Positions 3,940 through 61,793 are shown, counted from the stretch's first letter. The stretch is 62,343 bases of DNA from an archaeon (GCA_002688265.1 NZCK01000019.1:1-62343); one strand, 5' to 3'. Numbers and translations: made by a program. The notes: generated from the sequence alone by a model not told the origin.

Positions 3940-4305
3940 ATGTCAATTATTGATTTTGAAAGATGGGAAACAGCTCAGGGCCTGTATGATGTTTTAGTTT
4001 TAGATGTTGATAAGGAAGCTAGGAATGATTACATGATTAGTTTATATTGTTTAGGTGTTGATGAAGGTTATGTAGCTCAAGCTGCAGATTTGGGTTTGCA
4101 TAATGGTATATCTCCTCGGCAAATGGCTAATCAGGTGTGGGATGTAGAAATTGATTATTGCTATGCTGTTAAGGAAGTAGGGAGACATTTTGGAAAGCAA
4201 CTTGTTGTTAATTCAGATATTCGAAATAATTTAATTCTTGCAGATTTGTTTGGAAGGGAGTCTGTTGGCAAAAGGTTGTTTGATTTGGTTGAAGAACGTT
4301 TTTAG
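3940..4305 (+). CDS. Hypothetical acidic protein
   Basis: 121-aa ORF with a TATA-like ATTTTTATAAAT about 30-40 nt upstream. No family recognised. Confidence 0.5.
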   Translation: MSIIDFERWETAQGLYDVLVLDVDKEARNDYMISLYCLGVDEGYVAQAADLGLHNGISPRQMANQVWDVEIDYCYAVKEVGRHFGKQLVVNSDIRNNLILADLFGRESVGKRLFDLVEERF

Positions 4306-4353
4306 TTTGGTTAATTATTTGTTATTTCTTTGGTTTTGTAGAAAATCTCTTTA

Positions 4354-4481
4354 GCGCTGGTCAGGCTTATTCCACTCCAAACCAGTTCGCGATTGATTTT
4401 GCTTCTTGTTCCAAAGCAAAATGCTCCTGGTGATCATTGTCTTTCTTCGCTTGCCAGCAAGGGGACCTGCGCGCCAATGCA
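4354..4481. repeat. GC-rich structured intergenic element, copy A (candidate ncRNA or MITE-like repeat)
   Basis: GC-rich island in an AT-rich spacer. Closing helix GCGCTGGTC (4354-4362) / GACCTGCGC (4464-4472) with one T-T mismatch. Sequence blocks are shared with copies at 19208, 33962, 35301 and 54921. Confidence 0.55.
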
Positions 4482-4570
4482 GTTTTTATATCTCTTTTAC
4501 CCGTAAACCTTTTAAATTAAGCACTAATGATCGGCATATAACAATCAAATAGACTTATGGGGGGAAAAAT

Positions 4571-8985: not shown

Positions 8986-9314
8986 ATAGGATGGTATTTT
9001 TGAGAAGTTAATTAATGTTTTGTAAAACTAAGATAGATAGTCGTTTTTTAATATAATGTTAAAATAACTTTAGTTTGTTTTTACATTAAAATTAGTTGAA
9101 ATTTCTTTAACAATAGTTAAAGATCTACTTGAATTCATTAATTTTAAATAATATCAAATCAAATTTATTTCTTGTTTACTTTAATTTAATTTTTCTTGCA
9201 AAATAAGAAATATCTTTAAAAAATAAAACAGAAGATTTTTGAGATAATTTTATAAACTAAATTCTCCTCTTTAATGTTTTATAATAGTAAATATTTAGTT
9301 GGTGGTGTTGATGA

Positions 9315-9989
9315 ATGGAAGAACATAAAGTTTTAACAGGAATGCTACTCATAGCATTAGTAGTTTCTGTAGTAGGGACAGTAATTACATTAGATAGACT
9401 AGGTGCAGTAGGTGGAGTTGGTTTAACTGGGGCTGCTGGTGGAACAGGTGACTTGAACATTACATCAGACATTACCATAACTTTGCCAGATTCAGCTATT
9501 GATTTTGGAAATGGTAAAGTAGATCCTAGTGTAGGATATGCCACAGTTAATAGTGAAGCAGGAAGTACATCAGGTGGAACTTGGGCTAATGCAACTGATA
9601 ACATTACTGTTAGAAATGATGGGAATGTTGGAGTAAATGTAACAGTTAAATCTAATAAACAAGATGGAAACCATACATCAAACAGTTTCATTTGTCAAAG
9701 TGATGCTGGTGGTTGTGGAGTTGGATATGAAAATGGTGGAGAGTTGACTGCTTTGCAATATAAGTTTCAACCATTAAACCATGAAGCAAGTTCTTGTGGA
9801 GCTAATTTAGCTGGAACAACTTCATTTTCAGTAAAAGATACTGACTATGAGTTTTGTGGTTGTCTGAAAACAGCATCTACTGAAGACGAAATTGCTTTAA
9901 CGTTAAATATAGGAATTCCTGCAGATGCACAAGGACAGAAATCTTCAACTATAACATTTACTTCAGTACAATCTGATGTAGCTTGTTAG
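9315..9989 (+). CDS. Secreted Cys-rich surface protein, paralog 2 of 3
   Basis: Same architecture and conserved blocks as 104-778. The first ~230 nt are nearly identical to paralog 1 at nucleotide level. Terminal Cys. Confidence 0.85.
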   Translation: MEEHKVLTGMLLIALVVSVVGTVITLDRLGAVGGVGLTGAAGGTGDLNITSDITITLPDSAIDFGNGKVDPSVGYATVNSEAGSTSGGTWANATDNITVRNDGNVGVNVTVKSNKQDGNHTSNSFICQSDAGGCGVGYENGGELTALQYKFQPLNHEASSCGANLAGTTSFSVKDTDYEFCGCLKTASTEDEIALTLNIGIPADAQGQKSSTITFTSVQSDVAC

Positions 9990-9995
9990 GTTGAG

Positions 9996-10019
9996 TTTTT
10001 TCTTTTTTTCTTTTTTTTT
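9996..10019. terminator. Oligo-T tract between convergent paralog 2 and the signal peptidase gene
   Basis: T6, T7 and T9 runs right after the stop at 9987-9989. Confidence 0.45.
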
Positions 10020-10024
10020 AAAAC

Positions 10025-18343: not shown

Positions 18344-19048
18344 TTAACATCCAGCTCCGCCTGCAGCAGTTGAAGTAAAAGTTAATGTTGAAGATTTTTG
18401 TCCTTGTGCATCAGCAGGAATTCCAATGTCTAAAAAAAGTGCTGCCTCATCTTGAGTAGATCCTGTTTTCAAACAATCACAGAAGTCATAATTTACATCC
18501 TTTTTAGTAAAAGCAGTTGTTCCTACTGCCAAAATGGTACAAGATCCTGCTTCATTATTTACTGCTCCAAAAGCATATTGTAAAGCATTATTTTCTCCAC
18601 CATCATCATAACCTACACCACATCCTCCAGCGTCACTTTGACAAATGAAACTATTAGTTGTGTGGTTTCCGTCTTGTTTATTAGATTGAACAGTTATATT
18701 TACTCCTACATTTCCATCATTTCTAACTGTGATGTTGTCTGCATCTCCAGTATTGTTTTTCCAAGTCCCATCGGCTGTATTCGCTGAACTACTTACTAAA
18801 GCATATCCTGCACTAGGGTCTACTTTTCCATTTCCAAAATCAATTCCAGAATCTGGCAAAGTGATTGTAATATCTTGAGTGATATTCAAGTCACCTGTTC
18901 CACCGGCAGCCCCAGTTAATCCATTTGCACTGTTAACTCCACCTACTGCACCTAGTCTATCTAATGTAATTACTGTCCCTACTACAGAAACAACTAATGC
19001 TATGAGTAGCATTCCTGTTAAAACTTTATGTTCTTCCACTTTTTCCAT
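18344..19048 (-). CDS. Secreted Cys-rich surface protein, paralog 3 of 3
   Basis: Same blocks as 104-778 and 9315-9989. Extra VNSANGL insert after the signal segment. Ends ...AAGGAGC. Confidence 0.85.
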   Translation of the reverse strand: MEKVEEHKVLTGMLLIALVVSVVGTVITLDRLGAVGGVNSANGLTGAAGGTGDLNITQDITITLPDSGIDFGNGKVDPSAGYALVSSSANTADGTWKNNTGDADNITVRNDGNVGVNITVQSNKQDGNHTTNSFICQSDAGGCGVGYDDGGENNALQYAFGAVNNEAGSCTILAVGTTAFTKKDVNYDFCDCLKTGSTQDEAALFLDIGIPADAQGQKSSTLTFTSTAAGGAGC

Positions 19049-19207: not shown

Positions 19208-19333
19208 ATTGGCGTTGGGCGAGGCAGGGCTACTCTAAATGACTTCGCGCAGATTTTGTTCGCTCCGCTCCAAAATATTCGTCATTGATTGATTCTGCTT
19301 CTCTTCACTCCTGCATTGGCCAGCGCGCCAATG
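19208..19333. repeat. GC-rich structured intergenic element, copy B
   Basis: Closing helix ATTGGCG (19208-19214) / CGCCAAT (19326-19332). Internal hairpin GCGAGG...CTTCGC. Blocks CCGCTCCAAAATATTCGTCATTGATTGATTCTGCTTCTCTTCAC and GGCCAGCGCGCCAATG match copy A. Confidence 0.55.
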
Positions 19334-19337
19334 TTAA

Positions 19338-21251
19338 TTAATAATTCAACAGAATCTCTGCTTCCTTACCAAAGTGTTTCTTAATAGCTTCGAAAACAGG
19401 TTCCTTAATGAAAACTCTCCCTGGAAATTTAGCACCAGACAAAGCCTTCTCAAACTCTTCAAGACTACTTTTCTTAGCAACACCTAAGCTGCCATCTTTG
19501 TTAAGAGAAGCTTTCTCAATCTTACCATCACGAGCATCAATGTCTCGAACAATAAAAGCTTCTTTTTCAAGTAAAGTGATCTCTGCAAACTTGGAACCAT
19601 GCTTAACTCGGATCTTAGCTCTTTGTAATTCAAGTCCACGTTTCATTTGCAAATAATCTACTAAGAAACGAATCAAAGCAATACTTCCTTGCTTAGCTTT
19701 ATGCAATTCAGACTTGCTAAGTTTTCCTGCTTCGGTTTTCTTCTTCGCAGCTACAATCTCTTTTAACTCACGCAAAAATTTGGCTGGGACTTTTCCAGAA
19801 GTAATTAATTCTTCTTCAAATATCTTTAAAATTTCGCTTTCCTTAGCACGAGTTACACCTTCTAACTTAAGAATATCACGAATGATGGTTACAACCTCGT
19901 CATGCAAATGGATCAAACTATTTTGATCCTTACGCTCTTCGATCTGAGTAAACAATTTTTTGATTCTGGCAAGAAATTCTTCAGTTTCTTTAATCATCTT
20001 ATCAATTTCTGTTCCGGAAATTGTTTTCCTATCGCCATGTTCTAAATCTTTTCTAACCTGTACATTACGTTTTAAGATTTGAATCCACTTCTTTTCCAAG
20101 AGTTTTTCTTTCTTTACAAAAATATCTTCAAGAACTTCTGGTGTCTCCTTTGGTGTTGGTGGAGGAAGCCCATAAAGCATGATTGCAGCCTGACTTGGAG
20201 TTAAGGCTGCATAAAATAAATCTTCCATACCCACATTTCTTAGAGTATGTTGAATTCTCTTTTGCATCTGCTCTCCACTACTCATGAAAATATCAATTGC
20301 TTCACGACTAGGTTTAATTTTTCCAAGTCTTAACAGTTGTTTCCAAGGCATGAAAATTCCACGATCATACATTGGAATTCCATCTCTTAGCAATGTAAAG
20401 ATAATTGGGTTTGCTTCTTTTAGAGAGTCCCAGAAATCAGTTAAGATGTAAACCTGGATGTTTAGCTTGTTAGTTATACCAGTTATTTGACCTGCTTCAG
20501 CACCCATTCCGATAATGATGGCTCTTAGTTTTTCTTTTAATTCTAATCGGCTCATCTTCTTAACATCAGTGTCATCAATTACAATCCAAACATCAATATC
20601 TGATTTTTCAGTTGCTCGCCCTTGAGTTAAGGACCCAGCTAAAACGTATGAAAGAATGTATTTCTCGAATTTCTTGATAACCATACTTTTGTGAATTTCT
20701 GAGATTCTAATCGCAGCTAACATTCCAGTATCATAAATTGGAGCGGACATTGCAATTAATTTAGAAATTTCGTATTTGGCATCATAATAATTCTGCCAAA
20801 GGTCTGTTAATAACATACTCTGAGCTTTGAAATTTTTGTCTACCTTGCCAGCAATTTCAGTTATTATAGTAGAAAATTTTCTATGAAGTTCATCTTTAGT
20901 CATTTTAGTGCTTGTTGTATCATCAACTAAAACTAGAATTGGAACTTCATCAGGATTTTTAACTTTTGCTTTAGGATCAGCTGGTAGAGGTTTTCCATCT
21001 GGTGCTACTTGCGGTTTTTCTGGTGGCAAAACAGTGATTCCTACAATGTAATCTCCAAATTTGTCTACAACTTTATCTTTGAATTGTGCTAATTTTTCTT
21101 GAAGTAAAGTTAATTTTTTCTGCATCTCAGGAGGTAAATTAGGTGTATTTGCTACTGCACCTGCAGCTTTTGCAGCCCCATCTTTTGGATTTACTGCTTT
21201 AATTGATTTTGATTTTAATGATTTCTTCCCTTTCTTAATTGCTTTTGCCAT
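19338..21251 (-). CDS. Large nucleotidyltransferase-domain protein (degenerate NTase-like plus active-looking NTase plus helical C-terminal region)
   Basis: LAGSLTQGRATEKSDIDVWIVIDD (GS...DxD). An upstream region with similar layout lacks the GS/DxD residues (GITVLPP...ILVLVDDT). The helical tail is possibly HEPN-like. Confidence 0.6.
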   Translation of the reverse strand: MAKAIKKGKKSLKSKSIKAVNPKDGAAKAAGAVANTPNLPPEMQKKLTLLQEKLAQFKDKVVDKFGDYIVGITVLPPEKPQVAPDGKPLPADPKAKVKNPDEVPILVLVDDTTSTKMTKDELHRKFSTIITEIAGKVDKNFKAQSMLLTDLWQNYYDAKYEISKLIAMSAPIYDTGMLAAIRISEIHKSMVIKKFEKYILSYVLAGSLTQGRATEKSDIDVWIVIDDTDVKKMSRLELKEKLRAIIIGMGAEAGQITGITNKLNIQVYILTDFWDSLKEANPIIFTLLRDGIPMYDRGIFMPWKQLLRLGKIKPSREAIDIFMSSGEQMQKRIQHTLRNVGMEDLFYAALTPSQAAIMLYGLPPPTPKETPEVLEDIFVKKEKLLEKKWIQILKRNVQVRKDLEHGDRKTISGTEIDKMIKETEEFLARIKKLFTQIEERKDQNSLIHLHDEVVTIIRDILKLEGVTRAKESEILKIFEEELITSGKVPAKFLRELKEIVAAKKKTEAGKLSKSELHKAKQGSIALIRFLVDYLQMKRGLELQRAKIRVKHGSKFAEITLLEKEAFIVRDIDARDGKIEKASLNKDGSLGVAKKSSLEEFEKALSGAKFPGRVFIKEPVFEAIKKHFGKEAEILLNY

Positions 21252-33433: not shown

Positions 33434-33940
33434 TTAGTTCTTCTCATCCACTTCATCCAAAAACTCATTAAGTAATTCATGAATCTTACACTCTGGCCTA
33501 ACATATGGAATGAAGTCATGCTCTTCTGCTATCTTCAAATACTTCTCAAGCTCTTTAACATCAGGACAATAAAGAAGTGCTTCTGTTTCAGCTGAAATCC
33601 CTTCCAAATACTCAACTTGATGTCTTGGATCAGTTCTATCACGATTCGCAAGAGCAATCACTGGAAGTTTGCGTCTTAGAATTTCAAAAACAGTCCCAGG
33701 TCCGCCATGACAAATAACAAAACTGGCTTTGTCATAATACTCATGCAACTTTGGAGCGAATTTGAAGAACTCGCAATGTTTGGGTTCGTAAGATCCGTGA
33801 CCTATTTGAATGATAACTTTGCTAGGAATTTTTCCAATCTCTTTTAGTCGATCGATTTCTTTGATCAAAGGATCGAATCTGCCGTTACCTACTGTAACGA
33901 AAACTGTAGCAAAAAGTTCTTCTGGTTTTTTTGGTGTCAT
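33434..33940 (-). CDS. Alg13-like glycosyltransferase subunit (GT28 C-terminal domain; PssE/Cps14G-like)
   Basis: VFVTVGNGRFDPLIKEI and ICHGGPGTVFEIL. Start trimmed from 34015 to ATG 33940 because the extension runs through GC-rich element D. Confidence 0.75.
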   Translation of the reverse strand: MTPKKPEELFATVFVTVGNGRFDPLIKEIDRLKEIGKIPSKVIIQIGHGSYEPKHCEFFKFAPKLHEYYDKASFVICHGGPGTVFEILRRKLPVIALANRDRTDPRHQVEYLEGISAETEALLYCPDVKELEKYLKIAEEHDFIPYVRPECKIHELLNEFLDEVDEKN

Positions 33941-33961
33941 TTTTTGATTTTTTTTATTTCT

Positions 33962-34133
33962 GGCGTGGGTCAGTAAGGCTTCGTCGTAGCAAGCTACTCC
34001 TCGGAACACTGCCACTCACACCTCAATGTTTTATTTGAGGAAGCTGCGACCCGGATGGTGCAACCCCCGCAACGCTTTCAATATGTTTTATGATTGGTGC
34101 TCGTAATTGGCAGTGTGTTCGCCCTTACTGACC
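33962..34133. repeat. GC-rich structured intergenic element, copy D (largest; between alg14-like and alg13-like genes)
   Basis: Nested helices: GGTCAGTAAGG (33968-33978) / CCTTACTGACC (34123-34133); CACTGCCA (34007-34014) / TGGCAGTG (34108-34115); CCTCAA...TTGAGG hairpin. The 5' end TGGCGTGGGTCAG..GGCTT matches copies A and B. Confidence 0.6.
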
Positions 34134-34137
34134 TTAA

Positions 34138-34620
34138 TTACGATAACCTCCCTTTGAACTTAGCCTTAGGATATTGATGTAACATATTCTTCCACTGAAC
34201 AATAAACAAGTCAGTAATTCGATAAACAAACCTTCCTGCTTGACTTTTATTATGTACTCTTACCCAACTCTCTAAAAAGATAGTCTTGATTCTAAATATC
34301 TTTGCTATCCAAAACAAAGGTATTGCCATACTTGGCCCACTACATAAAACAACATCAGGTCTTGAGTGTCTTAAAACATTAATTACATCTAAACTAGCTG
34401 GAACCATCTTAAGAGCAACTTTGCCTAAAAATTTGTCTTTCATATCTCTTGGATTTTTCATGTAATAAATTGGACCAGGTTTTCTAATCTTAGCTTTACT
34501 GGTTTTATCATCAGTACATATAAGGTAGCATAATTCGTGTTTCTCTTCAATCCCATCAACTAATCTTAAGATTTGAGAAGTGTGTCCACCCATTCCAAGT
34601 GCTACTAATACTTTTGCCAT
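34138..34620 (-). CDS. Alg14-like glycosyltransferase subunit (PssD/Cps14F-like), no N-terminal TM
   Basis: LGMGGHTSQILRLV and PDVVLCSGPSMAIPLFWIAKIF..IFLESWVRV. Confidence 0.7.
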   Translation of the reverse strand: MAKVLVALGMGGHTSQILRLVDGIEEKHELCYLICTDDKTSKAKIRKPGPIYYMKNPRDMKDKFLGKVALKMVPASLDVINVLRHSRPDVVLCSGPSMAIPLFWIAKIFRIKTIFLESWVRVHNKSQAGRFVYRITDLFIVQWKNMLHQYPKAKFKGRLS

Positions 34621-34718: not shown

Positions 34719-35294
34719 TTATTGCTTCCGATCATGAGCTCTTCGACTTGGACGAGCTTTTTCATAACCTTTGCCCTTTTTCGCCATACCACGAGATTTC
34801 TTCCCTGCAGAAGTTTTCCCATGAAATACACGGGATTGGTTTGCTTTCTTACCTGTCCAAGCCATTTTTGGATCTGATTTGATCACAGGATGGTTTGGAT
34901 CTACACAGATAACTTCAAACCAATAATTCTGACCATCTTGAGCTACCCAATAACTGTTTAAAACAACTAAGTTTTTGTAAGTTTTTTGAACACGCTCTTC
35001 TGCGATAAGCCCATAACTTTTTCTCAAATTTAATCTTTGAGTGTATCTCTTAGGACGTCGTCCTCCTTTAAGCATTGGCCTTTTGTGACCACCACGAATA
35101 ACTCTTTCTCTTACCATTACGTATCCTTGTTTTGCTTTGTATCCAAGGTTTCGAGCACGATCAATTCTAGTTGGTTTTTCAATTCGAATTGTGCTTGGTT
35201 GACGTCTCCAAATTAGAAGTCTTTCTCTGTATAATTCGTTTAAGTTAGCTTTTGGTTTTTTCCAAAGCTGTTGAACATATTTGTACATTCCCAT
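34719..35294 (-). CDS. rpl15e: 50S ribosomal protein L15e
   Basis: [13 protein letters not shown]...[46 protein letters not shown] lies 9 nt before ATG 35294. The ORF-track start at 35327 was judged an over-extension. Confidence 0.92.
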
Positions 35295-35300
35295 TTTATT

Positions 35301-35420
35301 TCGGCCTCCGCTTGTGCGGTATATCAAACCAGATTCTTGATTTTCTGGTTCTTTTCGTTTTTTAGCTTTTTTTTTGTTAATTTTTCAGATTCAGGCAGCA
35401 GCCAAGCGCCCACATGTCTG
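35301..35420. repeat. GC-rich structured intergenic element, copy E (abuts the rpl15e start)
   Basis: CAAACCAGATTCTTGATTTTCTGGTTCTTTT aligns with copy A CAAACCAGTTCGCGATTGATTTTGCTTCTTGTT. The 3' GCAGCCAAGCGCCCACATG resembles GGCCAGCGCGCCAATG of copy B. Hairpins AACCAGA/TCTGGTT and CCGC/GCGG. Confidence 0.45.
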
Positions 35421-35464
35421 TTTTAAGTAGAAATGCTATAGTTTCTTTATAAAGATTGCTTAAA

Positions 35465-51920: not shown

Positions 51921-54884
51921 TTATCCTTGAGCAGAGTTATTTCTTGATTCACGTCGAAATAAATCCTTCAAAAACTGACCAGTATAACTTTTCTTAACCT
52001 TAGCAATTTCTTCTGGTGTCCCTTTAGCTAAAACAATCCCACCTTTCTCCCCACCTTCAGGACCCAAATCTATCACATAATCACAAGATTTGATCACATC
52101 CAAATTATGCTCAATCACATAAATAGAATTGCCTTTATCAACCAAACGATTGAGAACCTGCAATAACTTACGAATATCCTCAAAATGCAGACCAGTAGTT
52201 GGTTCGTCTAGTAAATAAACAGTATGTCCACGTTTTTGCTTAGCAAGTTCACGAGTTAATTTAATTCTCTGAGATTCACCACCAGAAAGAGTAATGGCAC
52301 TTTGACCCAACTTAATATATCCTAGACCAACATCATACAAAGTTTGAACTTTACGTTTAATCGAAGGATGGTTTTCAAAAAACAAAAGAGCAGCTTCGAC
52401 AGTCATATTCAAAACATCAGCAATATTCTTTTCTTTAAACAAAATAGAAAGTGTATCTTTATTGTACCTTTTTCCTTTACATTCATCACAAGTCACATAA
52501 ACGTCAGGCAAAAAATTCATTTCAATTTTAATAGTCCCATCTCCACGACAACTTTCACACCTACCACCTGGAATATTAAAACTAAAACGTCCAGCTTTGT
52601 AAGCTCGCATTCTAGCTTCTTTGGTTCCAGCATAAATTTTACGAATTTCATCAAAAATTTTAGTATAAGTTGCAGGATTAGACCTTGGAGTTTTTCCAAT
52701 AGGTTCCTGATTGATCAAAATTACACTTTTAACATCTTCTGGAATTGAAAGAGATTTGTGCGCTCCCATTTTCTCAAACGTTTGACCTAACTTCTTCTTT
52801 AAAGCAGGGATAAGTGTTTGATTCATTAAAGTAGATTTTCCAGAACCAGAAACTCCAGTTATGACACAAAGAATTTTGGTTGGCAAAGTAATATTGACAT
52901 TTTGCAAATTGTTCTGAGTGCAACCAATCAAAGTAATCTCATCTTTAGAAGTCTTTGGAAGTTCCCTTCTTTTTGTAGGTAACTCTATTTGTTCCTTTCC
53001 ACACAAAAACTGACCTGTGTGGCTGGCTTTATTTTTCATAACTTGCTCAGGTGTCCCTTCAGCTACAATTGATCCGCCATGTACACCAGCGCCAGGTCCC
53101 ATATCTATTAAATAGTCAGCCGCTCGCATAGTGTCTTCATCATGCTCAACAACAATTAAAGTATTACCAAGGTCCCGCAGACGATGAAGTGTGGCAATTA
53201 ACTTTTGATTGTCTTTTTGATGTAATCCAATACTTGGTTCATCTAATATGTACATAACTCCCATTAAATTTGCACCAATTTGAGTTGCTAACCTGATCCT
53301 TTGCGCTTCCCCACCACTCAATGTTCTTGCGGTTCTTGACAGATTAAGATATCCCAGCCCTACATTGTTTAGAAAAGTAAGTCTGTCAGTAATTTCTTTG
53401 AGAATTTGGCTGGCAATGAATAAATCTTTTTCGTTCAATTTTTTTGGAATGATTGTTATAAATTCTAGAGACCTTTCAATACTCAAATCTGTAATTTCAA
53501 TAATGTTCTTACGAGCAATCTTTACTGCAAGCATAGTTTCTTTCAAACGTTTACCCTCACAAATTTGACAAGGCTTACTTCGCATCATAGTCTCAAGTTT
53601 TTTCCTACGGTATTCAGACTCTGTTTGTTTGTAAAGACGCATACTCTGAGGAATTATTCCTTCAAAGCCTTGGTCCATATGCATTCTAGCACCAGTGCTC
53701 CACCTACCTCGAATCTTTTCAGTAGTTCCATAAAGCAAGATTTGTAATTGTTTTTCAGTGTAGTCTTTTATTGGTGTAAAAATATCAAAACCAGATTGTT
53801 TTCCAACAACAGCAATTTGCTGGCTACGCCATTTATTATCCATTTTACTATAAATAGCAATGGCACCATCAATAATACTCAATTTTTTGTTTGGGATTAT
53901 AAGTTCAGGGTCAATTTCTAAATGCTCACCTAGACCAGAACAGGTCCCACAAGCTCCAAACGGAGAATTGAAAGAAAACATTCTTGGCTCCAATTCTTCG
54001 AAAGTGATCTCTTGATGAGTTGGACAAGCACCAAAATTGGAGTACAAAGTTTCACCAGCACCTCTTCCAATTTGTTTTAGTGTTTCACTTTTACCTGTTT
54101 TATTCTTTGAAGATTTTGATTTATTTCTAGAATTTTTTTTGATATTCTCTTCTGCCCTTTTATCTGGATCCAGAACAACCAATTTTCCATCACCTTTTTG
54201 TAAAGCAGTTTCCACAGCTTCACTGAGCCTTAACCTAGTTTCTTGATTAATAGTAATTCGATCAATCACAGCTTCAATCCAATGTTTTTCGTATCTACCT
54301 AACTTTATCTCATCTTTAATTGTATCTAAACGATAAATTCTCCCATCGCATCTTACTCTGCTGAACCCTTCCTTTAATAGATCATCAAATATTTGTTCAT
54401 GAGTTCCTTTTTTCCCTCTAACGATTGGAGCTAAAATGATTAATTGTTTGCCAATGTCAGACATGATCATATTGGTGATAGTTTCTGCACTCAGTGGTTT
54501 AATTGGGCTATCACATTTAGGACAATGAACCGTTCCAATTCTGGCGTATAGAAGCCTTAGGTAATCATAAATTTCTGTTACAGTTCCGACAGTGGATCTA
54601 GGATTTTTACTAGTGGTTTTTTGTTCAATAGAAATTGCTGGTGAGAGACCTTCAATACTGTCAATATCAGGTTTGTTCATGATCCCTAAGAATTGTCTAG
54701 CATATGAAGATAGAGACTCAACGTAACGCCTTTGTCCTTCAGCGTAGATTGTGTCGAAGGCTAAACTGGATTTTCCACTTCCTGATAATCCAGTGATAAC
54801 TGTGAATTTGTTTCTTGGAATAGTAACTGTGATGTTTTTTAGATTATGTTGCCGAGCACCACGTACTATAATATCTTTTAACAT
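51921..54884 (-). CDS. uvrA: Excinuclease ABC subunit A
   Basis: GLSGSGKSSLAFDTIYAEGQRRYVESLSSYARQF, two ABC modules and zinc-finger cysteines. Start trimmed from 54965 to ATG 54884 (MLKDIIVRGARQHNLKNI). Confidence 0.95.
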   Translation of the reverse strand: MLKDIIVRGARQHNLKNITVTIPRNKFTVITGLSGSGKSSLAFDTIYAEGQRRYVESLSSYARQFLGIMNKPDIDSIEGLSPAISIEQKTTSKNPRSTVGTVTEIYDYLRLLYARIGTVHCPKCDSPIKPLSAETITNMIMSDIGKQLIILAPIVRGKKGTHEQIFDDLLKEGFSRVRCDGRIYRLDTIKDEIKLGRYEKHWIEAVIDRITINQETRLRLSEAVETALQKGDGKLVVLDPDKRAEENIKKNSRNKSKSSKNKTGKSETLKQIGRGAGETLYSNFGACPTHQEITFEELEPRMFSFNSPFGACGTCSGLGEHLEIDPELIIPNKKLSIIDGAIAIYSKMDNKWRSQQIAVVGKQSGFDIFTPIKDYTEKQLQILLYGTTEKIRGRWSTGARMHMDQGFEGIIPQSMRLYKQTESEYRRKKLETMMRSKPCQICEGKRLKETMLAVKIARKNIIEITDLSIERSLEFITIIPKKLNEKDLFIASQILKEITDRLTFLNNVGLGYLNLSRTARTLSGGEAQRIRLATQIGANLMGVMYILDEPSIGLHQKDNQKLIATLHRLRDLGNTLIVVEHDEDTMRAADYLIDMGPGAGVHGGSIVAEGTPEQVMKNKASHTGQFLCGKEQIELPTKRRELPKTSKDEITLIGCTQNNLQNVNITLPTKILCVITGVSGSGKSTLMNQTLIPALKKKLGQTFEKMGAHKSLSIPEDVKSVILINQEPIGKTPRSNPATYTKIFDEIRKIYAGTKEARMRAYKAGRFSFNIPGGRCESCRGDGTIKIEMNFLPDVYVTCDECKGKRYNKDTLSILFKEKNIADVLNMTVEAALLFFENHPSIKRKVQTLYDVGLGYIKLGQSAITLSGGESQRIKLTRELAKQKRGHTVYLLDEPTTGLHFEDIRKLLQVLNRLVDKGNSIYVIEHNLDVIKSCDYVIDLGPEGGEKGGIVLAKGTPEEIAKVKKSYTGQFLKDLFRRESRNNSAQG

Positions 54885-54920
54885 GATGGCACCTCTCTGT
54901 GCTCTTGGCAACGATCGACA

Positions 54921-54986
54921 AGCTTTGCTTGTCGAAAATTGATTTCTTTTTTCACTTGCCAGCAAGGGACATTCGCCACACTAAAT
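54921..54986. repeat. GC-rich intergenic element, copy C (short; abuts the uvrA start region)
   Basis: AAAATTGATTTCTTTTTTCACTTGCCAGCAAGGGACATTCGCCACACTAAATG. The 14-nt run CTTGCCAGCAAGGG is identical to copy A (4450-4463). Confidence 0.45.
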
Positions 54987-61510: not shown

Positions 61511-61793
61511 AAATTATTGATAGAAGAACTTCTTAATAACTCTTAGCTGAAGGTGGCCAGTGCCAGTGGGGAAATGCAGGTAAATGTATTTTGGATAAAT
61601 GGCTGTTTAGTAACTTATTGGTGGGTGCTCATAAAGTTGTTGTGGGCGTTAGAATATTGTGGTTAGGGGTCTTTAATAGTTAATATTTAGCCGAATTCGT
61701 ATAAGAGATGTTTCACGCAATTTGTCCATCACCTAAAGTAAAAGTACGCTACGCTAAAAATTAAGAACTCTAAAGTTGGCGCCTTGTGGATGT

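Follow-up and report, generated by a model that had tools for sequence, protein, structure and literature searches.

A structured, GC-rich intergenic repeat family in marine Woesearchaeota-like archaea

Introduction

DPANN archaea are uncultured and have tiny, AT-rich genomes, and to our knowledge very little is known of their non-coding content. A contig from one such archaeon raises the question of what kind of element fills a few of its intergenic spacers with GC-rich sequence. The window analysed here is the whole stretch of 62,343 nucleotides. An earlier note, made from its sequence alone, had described five related islands (A to E) in spacers that are otherwise nearly pure A/T, all in one orientation, with paired ends in three of them. 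It had proposed an unclassified non-coding RNA, a MITE-like repeat or a mobile leader element. The present analysis addresses which islands belong together, whether they occur in other genomes, what structure they share, and which of these explanations best accommodates their distribution.

The window and its host

The window is archaeal and encodes eL15, homologues of Alg13 and Alg14, a membrane pyrophosphatase (PPase), UvrA, IleRS, glutamine synthetase and pyruvate formate-lyase. Its nearest relatives in GTDB are 'archaeon SI039_bin19' (81% identity in eL15), SI039_bin32, and MAGs of Woesearchaeota/Nanoarchaeota, so the DPANN affiliation suggested earlier is correct. TARA Oceans assemblies contain contigs identical to the window. 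Pfam scans covered 30 window ORFs, with about 35 of the 55 assumed window genes lying outside the scan.

Base composition sets the islands apart. The window has a GC content of 33.6%, with 34.2% in coding sequence and 27.6% in spacers. A GC fraction of 0.58 over 60 nt is reached in just three spacers, those holding A, B and D, which bears out the GC islands described from the sequence. The corresponding maxima are 0.47 in the C spacer and 0.45 in the E spacer.

Family members in the window

Similarity among the islands was assessed with Smith-Waterman scores against shuffled sequences, with a covariance model (R1) built from A, B and L058e, a copy from a related genome, and with a profile HMM trained on copies outside the window alone and scanned against it. 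The Smith-Waterman scores of A with B (31) and of A with C (Table 1) were equalled in 0 of 300 shuffles. Those of A with E (p about 0.003) and of B with E (p about 0.01) were marginal, and D was unrelated to any other copy. Neither the profile HMM nor R1 found a match at D or E. A, B and L058e align collinearly from end to end.

Table 1. Position and extent of the islands in the window, counted from its first nucleotide
Feature	Position	Strand	Length and GC	Scores	Location
Copy A, full-length	4351..4480	+	130 nt, 50% GC	CM R1 120.5 bits; HMM E 7e-17	
Copy B, full-length	19209..19334	+	126 nt, 51% GC	CM R1 116 bits; HMM E 3e-23	
Copy C, degenerate 3' part	54893..54976	+		Smith-Waterman A-C 40; CM 13.7 bits (E 0.37), model positions 25-113	
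Element D, rod-like	33961..34133	+	173 nt, 51% GC		Between Alg14 (34138-34620) and Alg13 (33434-33940), both minus
Island E of the earlier note	35296..35425	-			Promoter and ~115-nt 5' UTR of eL15 (34719-35294, minus)

A and B are full-length, collinear homologues, and membership is narrower than the five copies proposed. Two full copies and the degenerate fragment C stand, while D shares a terminal motif alone and E is not a member. The resemblance claimed between A and B is real, but the block on which it was based is off register, and its extension to E does not hold. The true collinear alignment places A 4371-4406 against an earlier part of B. Judged by eye, an internal quasi-repeat, in which J5/P3 resembles the 3' loop, seems to account for the shift. 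The 3' block shared by A, B and C is genuine homology and is in register.

Copy C is a decayed copy, matched by R1 over 54893-54968. Its segment 54925-54976 gives HMM E-values of 1.3e-3 to 1.4e-4 (profile positions 69-122), and it retains a P3-like hairpin, the pyrimidine-rich loop and the CTTGCCAGCAAGGGAC block (CUUGCCAGCAAGGGAC). Its minimum free energy z-scores are -2.4 and -2.5. On the opposite strand, the 5' end of C serves as the ribosome-binding region of uvrA (51921-54884, minus), whose Shine-Dalgarno region and start it overlaps. The window copies lie singly, 15-35 kb apart. The common orientation remarked on earlier applies to A, B, C and the D motif, all of which are on the + strand, but four of four has a probability of 0.125.

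Element D has the family's 5' terminal motif (TGGCGTGGGTCAG) with 0 mismatches, together with GCTACTC, and lacks the family interior and the other terminus. The match between the 5' end of A and D holds as a motif: TGGCGNNGGTCAG is exact in D, where chance would give about 0.1 occurrences per window with up to one mismatch allowed, and the same sequence is carried by L058e and L192e. The closing helix of D is GGTCAGTAAGG/CCTTACTGACC, and its minus strand folds with z = -3.96. D begins 4 nt past the Alg14 stop codon, in the spacer 33941-34137. L003, the closest relative, has no D, its Alg14 and Alg13 genes sharing a 4-nt overlap, so D is either an insertion or a sequence lost in L003. No Rfam match to D and no homologue among the fetched loci were found. 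D is possibly a distant or truncated relative of the family. By eye, it also bears a weak likeness to SRP helix 8 and to CR-I/CR-V of RNase P, for which there is no model support.

Island E was rejected as a family member since it is the promoter and leader of eL15. It aligns upstream of eL15 in L003, to which it is about 70% identical, and in L004. The leader is conserved in L003 and partly in L004.

Homologues in related genomes

Copies outside the window establish the family independently of the window itself. A six-frame tblastn search for pseudogene fragments gave simultaneous matches in several frames to a single L058 spacer, which indicates homology at the nucleotide level. L058, a MAG contig from NCBI, encodes a PPase with 88% identity to that of the window, and its copy, L058e, is 129 nt long and collinear with A and B throughout. 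Scores under R1 are 141 bits for L058e, 70 for L065e, 70 for L192e and 59 for L202e. L065 is a 186-kb JGI marine contig, and L192-L200 represent one population. Homologues are present in three related marine Woesearchaeota-like genomes (L058, L065 and L192/L202). With E-values of 1e-13 to 1e-29 in independent genomes, a merely fortuitous similarity between GC-rich spacers is ruled out.

Searches of wider collections yielded little. A pattern scan of metagenomes returned 120 loci, among which L065 alone is real; the pattern is GC-biased, and soil contigs dominate the output. No copy was found in the other 119 metagenome loci, which are chance matches, or in 13 viral loci, and scans of viral contigs gave chance matches only. 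Phage and plasmid collections yielded no match to the element. Copies were likewise absent from about 100 kb of more distant relatives, including 40 kb of L003/L004 and 52 kb of relatives with a 78% identical PPase. Among 206 loci, the terminal motif occurs at the elements themselves and in two chance soil contigs only.

Non-orthologous copies show star-like pairwise identities of 66-75%, both within and between genomes. The orthologues B and L202e are 87% identical, and the spacer adjoining them cannot be aligned. A search of the literature found no description of such an element. The family is a genuine structured repeat, previously undescribed and unclassified.

A conserved rod with covarying helices

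All copies fit one nested rod, a long irregular hairpin on the family + strand with the helices P1a-P1b-P4-P2-P3. P1a pairs UUGGCGC with GCGCCAA. Its outermost U-A pair becomes A-U in L058e only, and in L065e nine further flanking base pairs, identified by eye, lengthen it. The 3' strand next has a 3-nt bulge (NGC), and P1b is GGUC/GACC. P4 is GCNGG/CCNGC, where the N pair is C-G, A-U or U-A. The rod further contains a 5' loop (GCYACUYYA), P2 of 5-6 bp, a junction (UUCGCG..G), the P3 hairpin (AUUUUG.../...CAAAAU) and a pyrimidine-rich loop of 22-26 nt on the 3' side (UUGAUU..CUUUCUU..). In copy A, these features correspond to P1a at 4351-4357/4471-4477, P1b at 4359-4362/4464-4467, P2 at 4381-4385/4427-4431, the P3 hairpin at 4396-4404/4414-4422 and the pyrimidine-rich 3' internal loop at 4432-4453; P4 itself is degenerate.

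Conservation along the element is highest at the termini, which form inverted repeats (TTGGCGC-N-GGTC ... GACC-NGC-GCGCCAA). Read as terminal inverted repeats of the MITE type, the left end is TTGGCGC-T-GGTC and the right end, in reverse complement, TTGGCGC-GCN-GGTC; both are invariant or nearly so in six copies. This sequence conservation contradicts the earlier proposal that the closing helices of A, B and D differ in sequence and are kept by compensatory change, as A and B share the same closing helix in the form of an invariant inverted repeat. The compensation is located instead deeper in the rod, in helices P2 and P4, and at the outermost A-U pair.

P2 provides the clearest case. It differs in all five independent copies (AACCAG/CUGGUG, AAUGAC/GUCAUU, UCCUGU/ACAGGA, UUCAAC/GUUGAA and UUUCAC/GUGAAA), yet 29 of 30 positions form standard pairs with their own partner, whereas swapped partners give 15 on average and 18 at most. 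For the concatenated helix strands, 94.6% of cells pair, compared with 83.6% in shuffles (reached in 0 of 500) and 38-45% when the partners are slid. The covariation score is 0.355 versus 0.121 in shuffles (0 of 500), and eight pairs change on both sides (1 of 500). These tests use five independent sequences with helix strands delimited by hand, and on that basis the helices covary as in structured non-coding RNAs generally.

Folding energies vary among the copies. The minimum free energy fold of L058e reproduces P1a-P1b-P4-P2-P3, and the copies of the relatives fold well on both strands (z -2.3 to -4.4). A and B fold no better than their shuffles (z +0.6 to -0.7).

The rod is also symmetric with respect to strand. 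Standard pairs occupy 159 of 168 helix cells, and three of these pairs are G-U; a further three cells hold A-C, which would read as G-U on the opposite strand. As the two are equally frequent, pairing is essentially Watson-Crick on both strands. In typical RNA helices, the share of G-U pairs is far above that seen here.

Read from the alignment and compared with a bulge-helix-bulge (BHB), the substrate of the archaeal splicing endonuclease (a 3-nt bulge, a 4-bp helix and an opposite 3-nt bulge), the element has the NGC bulge and the 4-bp P1b. A U stands opposite the first bulge, and the second 'bulge' is a 2x5 internal loop, so the arrangement departs from the canonical BHB. L202e additionally carries a nested insertion of 36 nt in its 5' loop (L202 2160-2195) with a hairpin of its own (GGCAATC..GATTGCC). 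This insertion is absent from its orthologue in the window, copy B.

Known RNAs and coding potential

Searches for recognised RNAs agree with the earlier judgement that the islands are not tRNA, 5S, SRP or RNase P RNA, and the family is unclassified in fact. ARAGORN found 0 tRNA genes in the 62-kb window at its default threshold, with or without intron search, and its calls at a relaxed threshold fall elsewhere, none on any copy. Rfam 15 has no gathering-level match in the 62 kb, and scans of A, B, D and L058e at E<=10 gave nothing beyond noise from unrelated families, all under 19 bits. The sequences as read have no T-loop or D-loop, and a split or permuted tRNA was rejected on that ground. 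Likenesses to C/D box and H/ACA RNAs, to a K-turn, to SRP helix 8 and to RNase P CR-I/CR-V were superficial, made by eye, and found no support in Rfam. Protein coding was rejected as well: no reading frame is conserved among the copies, whose small ORFs vary in both frame and length, with A and L058e put out of frame by indels and L065e reaching a stop after 12 codons.

Genomic context and presence or absence

The copies A, B, C, L058e and L065e all lie in different gene contexts. Copy A starts 46 nt past the stop codon of a 121-aa gene (3940-4305, +) and is followed on its 3' side by a T5 run and then by the promoter and gene of the PPase (4571, +). A gap of 3 nt separates the 3' end of B from the stop codon of a convergent gene (19338-21251, minus) for a nucleotidyltransferase-like protein of 637 aa, so that the minus strand reads stop codon, element, T6 run. 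The same order of stop codon, element and oligo-T holds at the copies that adjoin gene ends, on the + strand for A and on the other strand for B, L202e and L192e. By eye, neither strand has a TATA-like box at a fixed distance upstream or a T-run that consistently follows the element.

Orthologous loci differ in whether they hold a copy. In L058, no element stands upstream of the PPase gene; one lies about 600 nt downstream, between two minus-strand genes. The syntenic site in the window (8986-10024) carries a pilin-like gene instead. This gene (9315-9989, +) has a paralogue at 18344-19048 (-), 77% identical to it. Both encode secreted pilin-like proteins with an N-terminal hydrophobic segment, and the second lies 160 nt from copy B. 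A separate observation concerns the PPase promoter region (window 4482-4570, L058 500-593), which is conserved with its CTTTTAAATTA box and GGGGGG Shine-Dalgarno sequence; the upstream neighbours are wholly different in the two genomes.

The B site is the most informative. It is also filled in L202 and in L192-L200, where the flanking protein is 89% and 83% identical, respectively. In L201 (83%), a T-rich terminator comes immediately after the stop codon and aligns with the L202 sequence beyond the element, which constitutes a clean empty site. The element is likewise absent after the orthologous gene in L203, L204/205 and L206. In a neighbour-joining (NJ) tree of the flanking protein, lineages with and without the element are interspersed; judged from this single-gene tree, the element was gained or lost two or three times at the least.

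Direct traces of transposition were sought at the element boundaries and in the neighbouring genes. TA/TA flanks occur at L058e and L202e only and at none of A, B, L065e and L192e, and in flanks this AT-rich TA is expected by chance. No transposase was found in the 30 scanned window ORFs, and no transposase or autonomous element with the family's termini in the window or any fetched locus.

A palindromic repeat or a family of RNA genes

The closest resemblance is to a small palindromic element that is, or once was, mobile. In its specific form, this reading describes a MITE/ERIC/Correia-like family of structured intergenic repeats, GC-rich imperfect palindromes of 125-130 bp, in marine Woesearchaeota-like DPANN, and we give it a probability of about 0.5. 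Insertion into AT-rich spacers, in many cases between a stop codon and the oligo-T terminator, would have scattered the copies. An inserted element would be co-transcribed with the neighbouring gene in the orientation in which it landed and would form a stable rod in the transcript. Selection, either for propagation or for a benefit to the host such as 3'-end protection or termination, may then keep the hairpin Watson-Crick on both strands. The reading is based on the inverted termini, the rod on both strands, the non-syntenic copies, the polymorphism at one site, the placement ahead of terminators and the lack of a promoter or terminator belonging to the element.

Several observations speak against this repeat reading. 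No target-site duplication can be demonstrated, no transposase was found in the scanned window ORFs or the fetched loci, and the density of copies is modest. The copies are old, with star-like identities unlike those of a recent MITE burst. The gain and loss argument comes from a single-gene NJ tree, and the folds of A and B in the window are unremarkable. The loops are conserved (GCYACUYYA, UUCGCG and the pyrimidine tract), and together with the 87% identity of B and L202e beside an unalignable spacer, this points to purifying selection on individual copies, as for a functional RNA. For these reasons of missing duplication and transposase, old copies and conserved loops, a family of small RNA genes stays the main rival.

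Paralogous genes for a small non-coding RNA are a possible, though not a probable, source of the pattern. They would produce a stable rod of about 125 nt with paired termini, acting in trans, for example by binding protein through the loops. The shape would be comparable to those of 4.5S, Y, vault or 6S RNAs. Helix covariation alongside conserved loop sequences suits such genes, as does high GC in an AT-rich genome, a classic signature of structured RNA. The long-term retention of the B site across lineages, with flanking proteins 83-89% identical and the element of B and L202e conserved where the spacer has diverged beyond alignment, also fits. On the + strand, B, L058e, L065e and C have a divergent gene start upstream, so a shared promoter may exist. 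Other observations count against such genes: neither strand has conserved promoter spacing or a terminator, the 3:3 ratio of G-U to A-C prefers no strand, copies adjoin stop codons at a distance of 3-9 nt, positions are not syntenic, one site is patchy among close relatives, and Rfam holds no relative. More tentatively still, the family may be a new class of stable rod RNA of about 125 nt, confined to a marine Woesearchaeota-like DPANN lineage and with several paralogues per genome of about 1 Mb. Its loops (GCYACUYYA, UUCGCG and UUGAUU...CUUUCUU) would bind a protein or a target RNA, and turnover of its genes would mimic mobility.

A role at the DNA level, as an attC-like site or another structured site for recombination or binding that a recombinase or other protein recognises on folded single strands, is quite unlikely. 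Conserved inverted termini around a variable yet paired interior would suit it, and so would the placement right after stop codons, the strand-symmetric Watson-Crick pairing and the presence/absence polymorphism. The ends (TTGGCGC ... GCGCCAA(T)), however, misfit the attC core RYYYAAC/GTTRRRY on direct reading. The copies are flanked by conserved housekeeping genes in ordinary synteny and not by cassettes, they are scattered singly instead of standing in arrays, and no integrase or recombinase was found in the 30 scanned ORFs, which differs from an integron with its core sites, cassette arrays and integrase.

Among the options offered in the earlier note, the unclassified RNA and the MITE-like repeat survive as main rival and best explanation, respectively. 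A cis-regulatory leader, whether a riboswitch or a protein-binding 5' UTR of the downstream gene, is very improbable and largely refuted by the varied contexts. A, L065e and C do lie 90-210 nt upstream of a co-directional gene. These genes are unrelated (PPase, a 155-aa ORF and a DUF2087 protein), the TATA-like boxes of the PPase and 155-aa genes sit between element and gene, and B, L202e, L192e and L058e are antisense to both neighbours. The last reading, a familiar RNA that has gone unrecognised (5S, SRP or RNase P RNA, or a tRNA that is split, permuted or interrupted by an intron) or a chance GC-rich similarity, has only GC richness and the lack of a tRNA gene in 62 kb in its favour, and is hardly credible given the ARAGORN and Rfam results, the missing T- and D-loops and the E-values in independent genomes.

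Comparison with known repeats and RNAs

ERIC/IRU of Enterobacteriaceae and Correia elements (CREE/NEMIS) of Neisseria are imperfect palindromes of about 100-155 bp (ERIC about 127 bp) with conserved inverted ends. They reside in transcribed spacers in both orientations, form long hairpins in mRNA, and vary in presence at orthologous sites; the present family is not known to undergo RNase processing or to act as a promoter. The family resembles them in length, inverted ends, hairpin, intergenic dispersal and site polymorphism. It differs in its DPANN archaeal host, in its far more diverged copies (66-75%), in an apparently low copy number and in the lack of a demonstrable TA duplication. No sequence similarity between the groups is expected or seen.

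MITEs are non-autonomous derivatives of insertion sequences, and archaeal examples have been described in Sulfolobus and haloarchaea. Like them, the family is small and non-coding, has terminal inverted repeats of about 13-15 bp, and occupies unrelated sites with insertion polymorphism, the site filled in L202 and empty in L201 being the instance at hand. The burst-like high similarity expected of MITEs is not seen among its non-orthologous copies. It also departs from MITEs in that no target-site duplication, parent IS or transposase was found, and in that the interior has compensatory changes and conserved loops.

The REP/BIME sequences are likewise GC-rich extragenic palindromes located after genes, with stems kept by compensatory substitutions, and roles in mRNA 3'-end stability and termination have been proposed for them. 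In contrast to the present family, REPs are about 35 bp long, are often clustered and have a cognate Y1 transposase (RAYT); no such transposase was seen here. The Hgc RNAs offer the closest analogy in discovery, having reportedly been found by Klein, Misulovin and Eddy in 2002 through GC composition in AT-rich hyperthermophilic archaea. GC islands in AT-rich archaeal spacers are common to both, whereas the host here is a marine mesophile-type DPANN and no Rfam Hgc model matches at E<=10.

The significance of the family depends on which reading applies. A mobile element would serve as a marker of genome dynamics in a supposedly streamlined lineage and would help in strain typing and assembly. 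A co-opted one would be a candidate for hairpin control of archaeal mRNA 3' ends. Archaeal terminators are thought to need oligo-T alone. As a family of RNA genes, it would add an orphan class of non-coding RNA. The covariance model and the motifs enable a census in public MAGs and metatranscriptomes.

Other features of the window

Two further features of the window merit a brief description. The 62 kb, part of a small archaeal genome, has no tRNA, rRNA or other RNA gene that Rfam recognises. The spacer 61511-61793 is 283 nt long with 37% GC (maximum 0.48 in 60 nt) and G-rich stretches; it has neither a long ORF nor a match to the element family.

The leader region of eL15 (35296-35464, minus) is organised as a TATA-like sequence TTTATAAA, a GC-rich 5' hairpin GGGCGCUUGGCUGCUGCCU and an A-rich linker, and a hairpin CCGCACAAGCGG adjoins the GGAGG Shine-Dalgarno sequence. 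This region is possibly an autoregulatory leader of the ribosomal protein.
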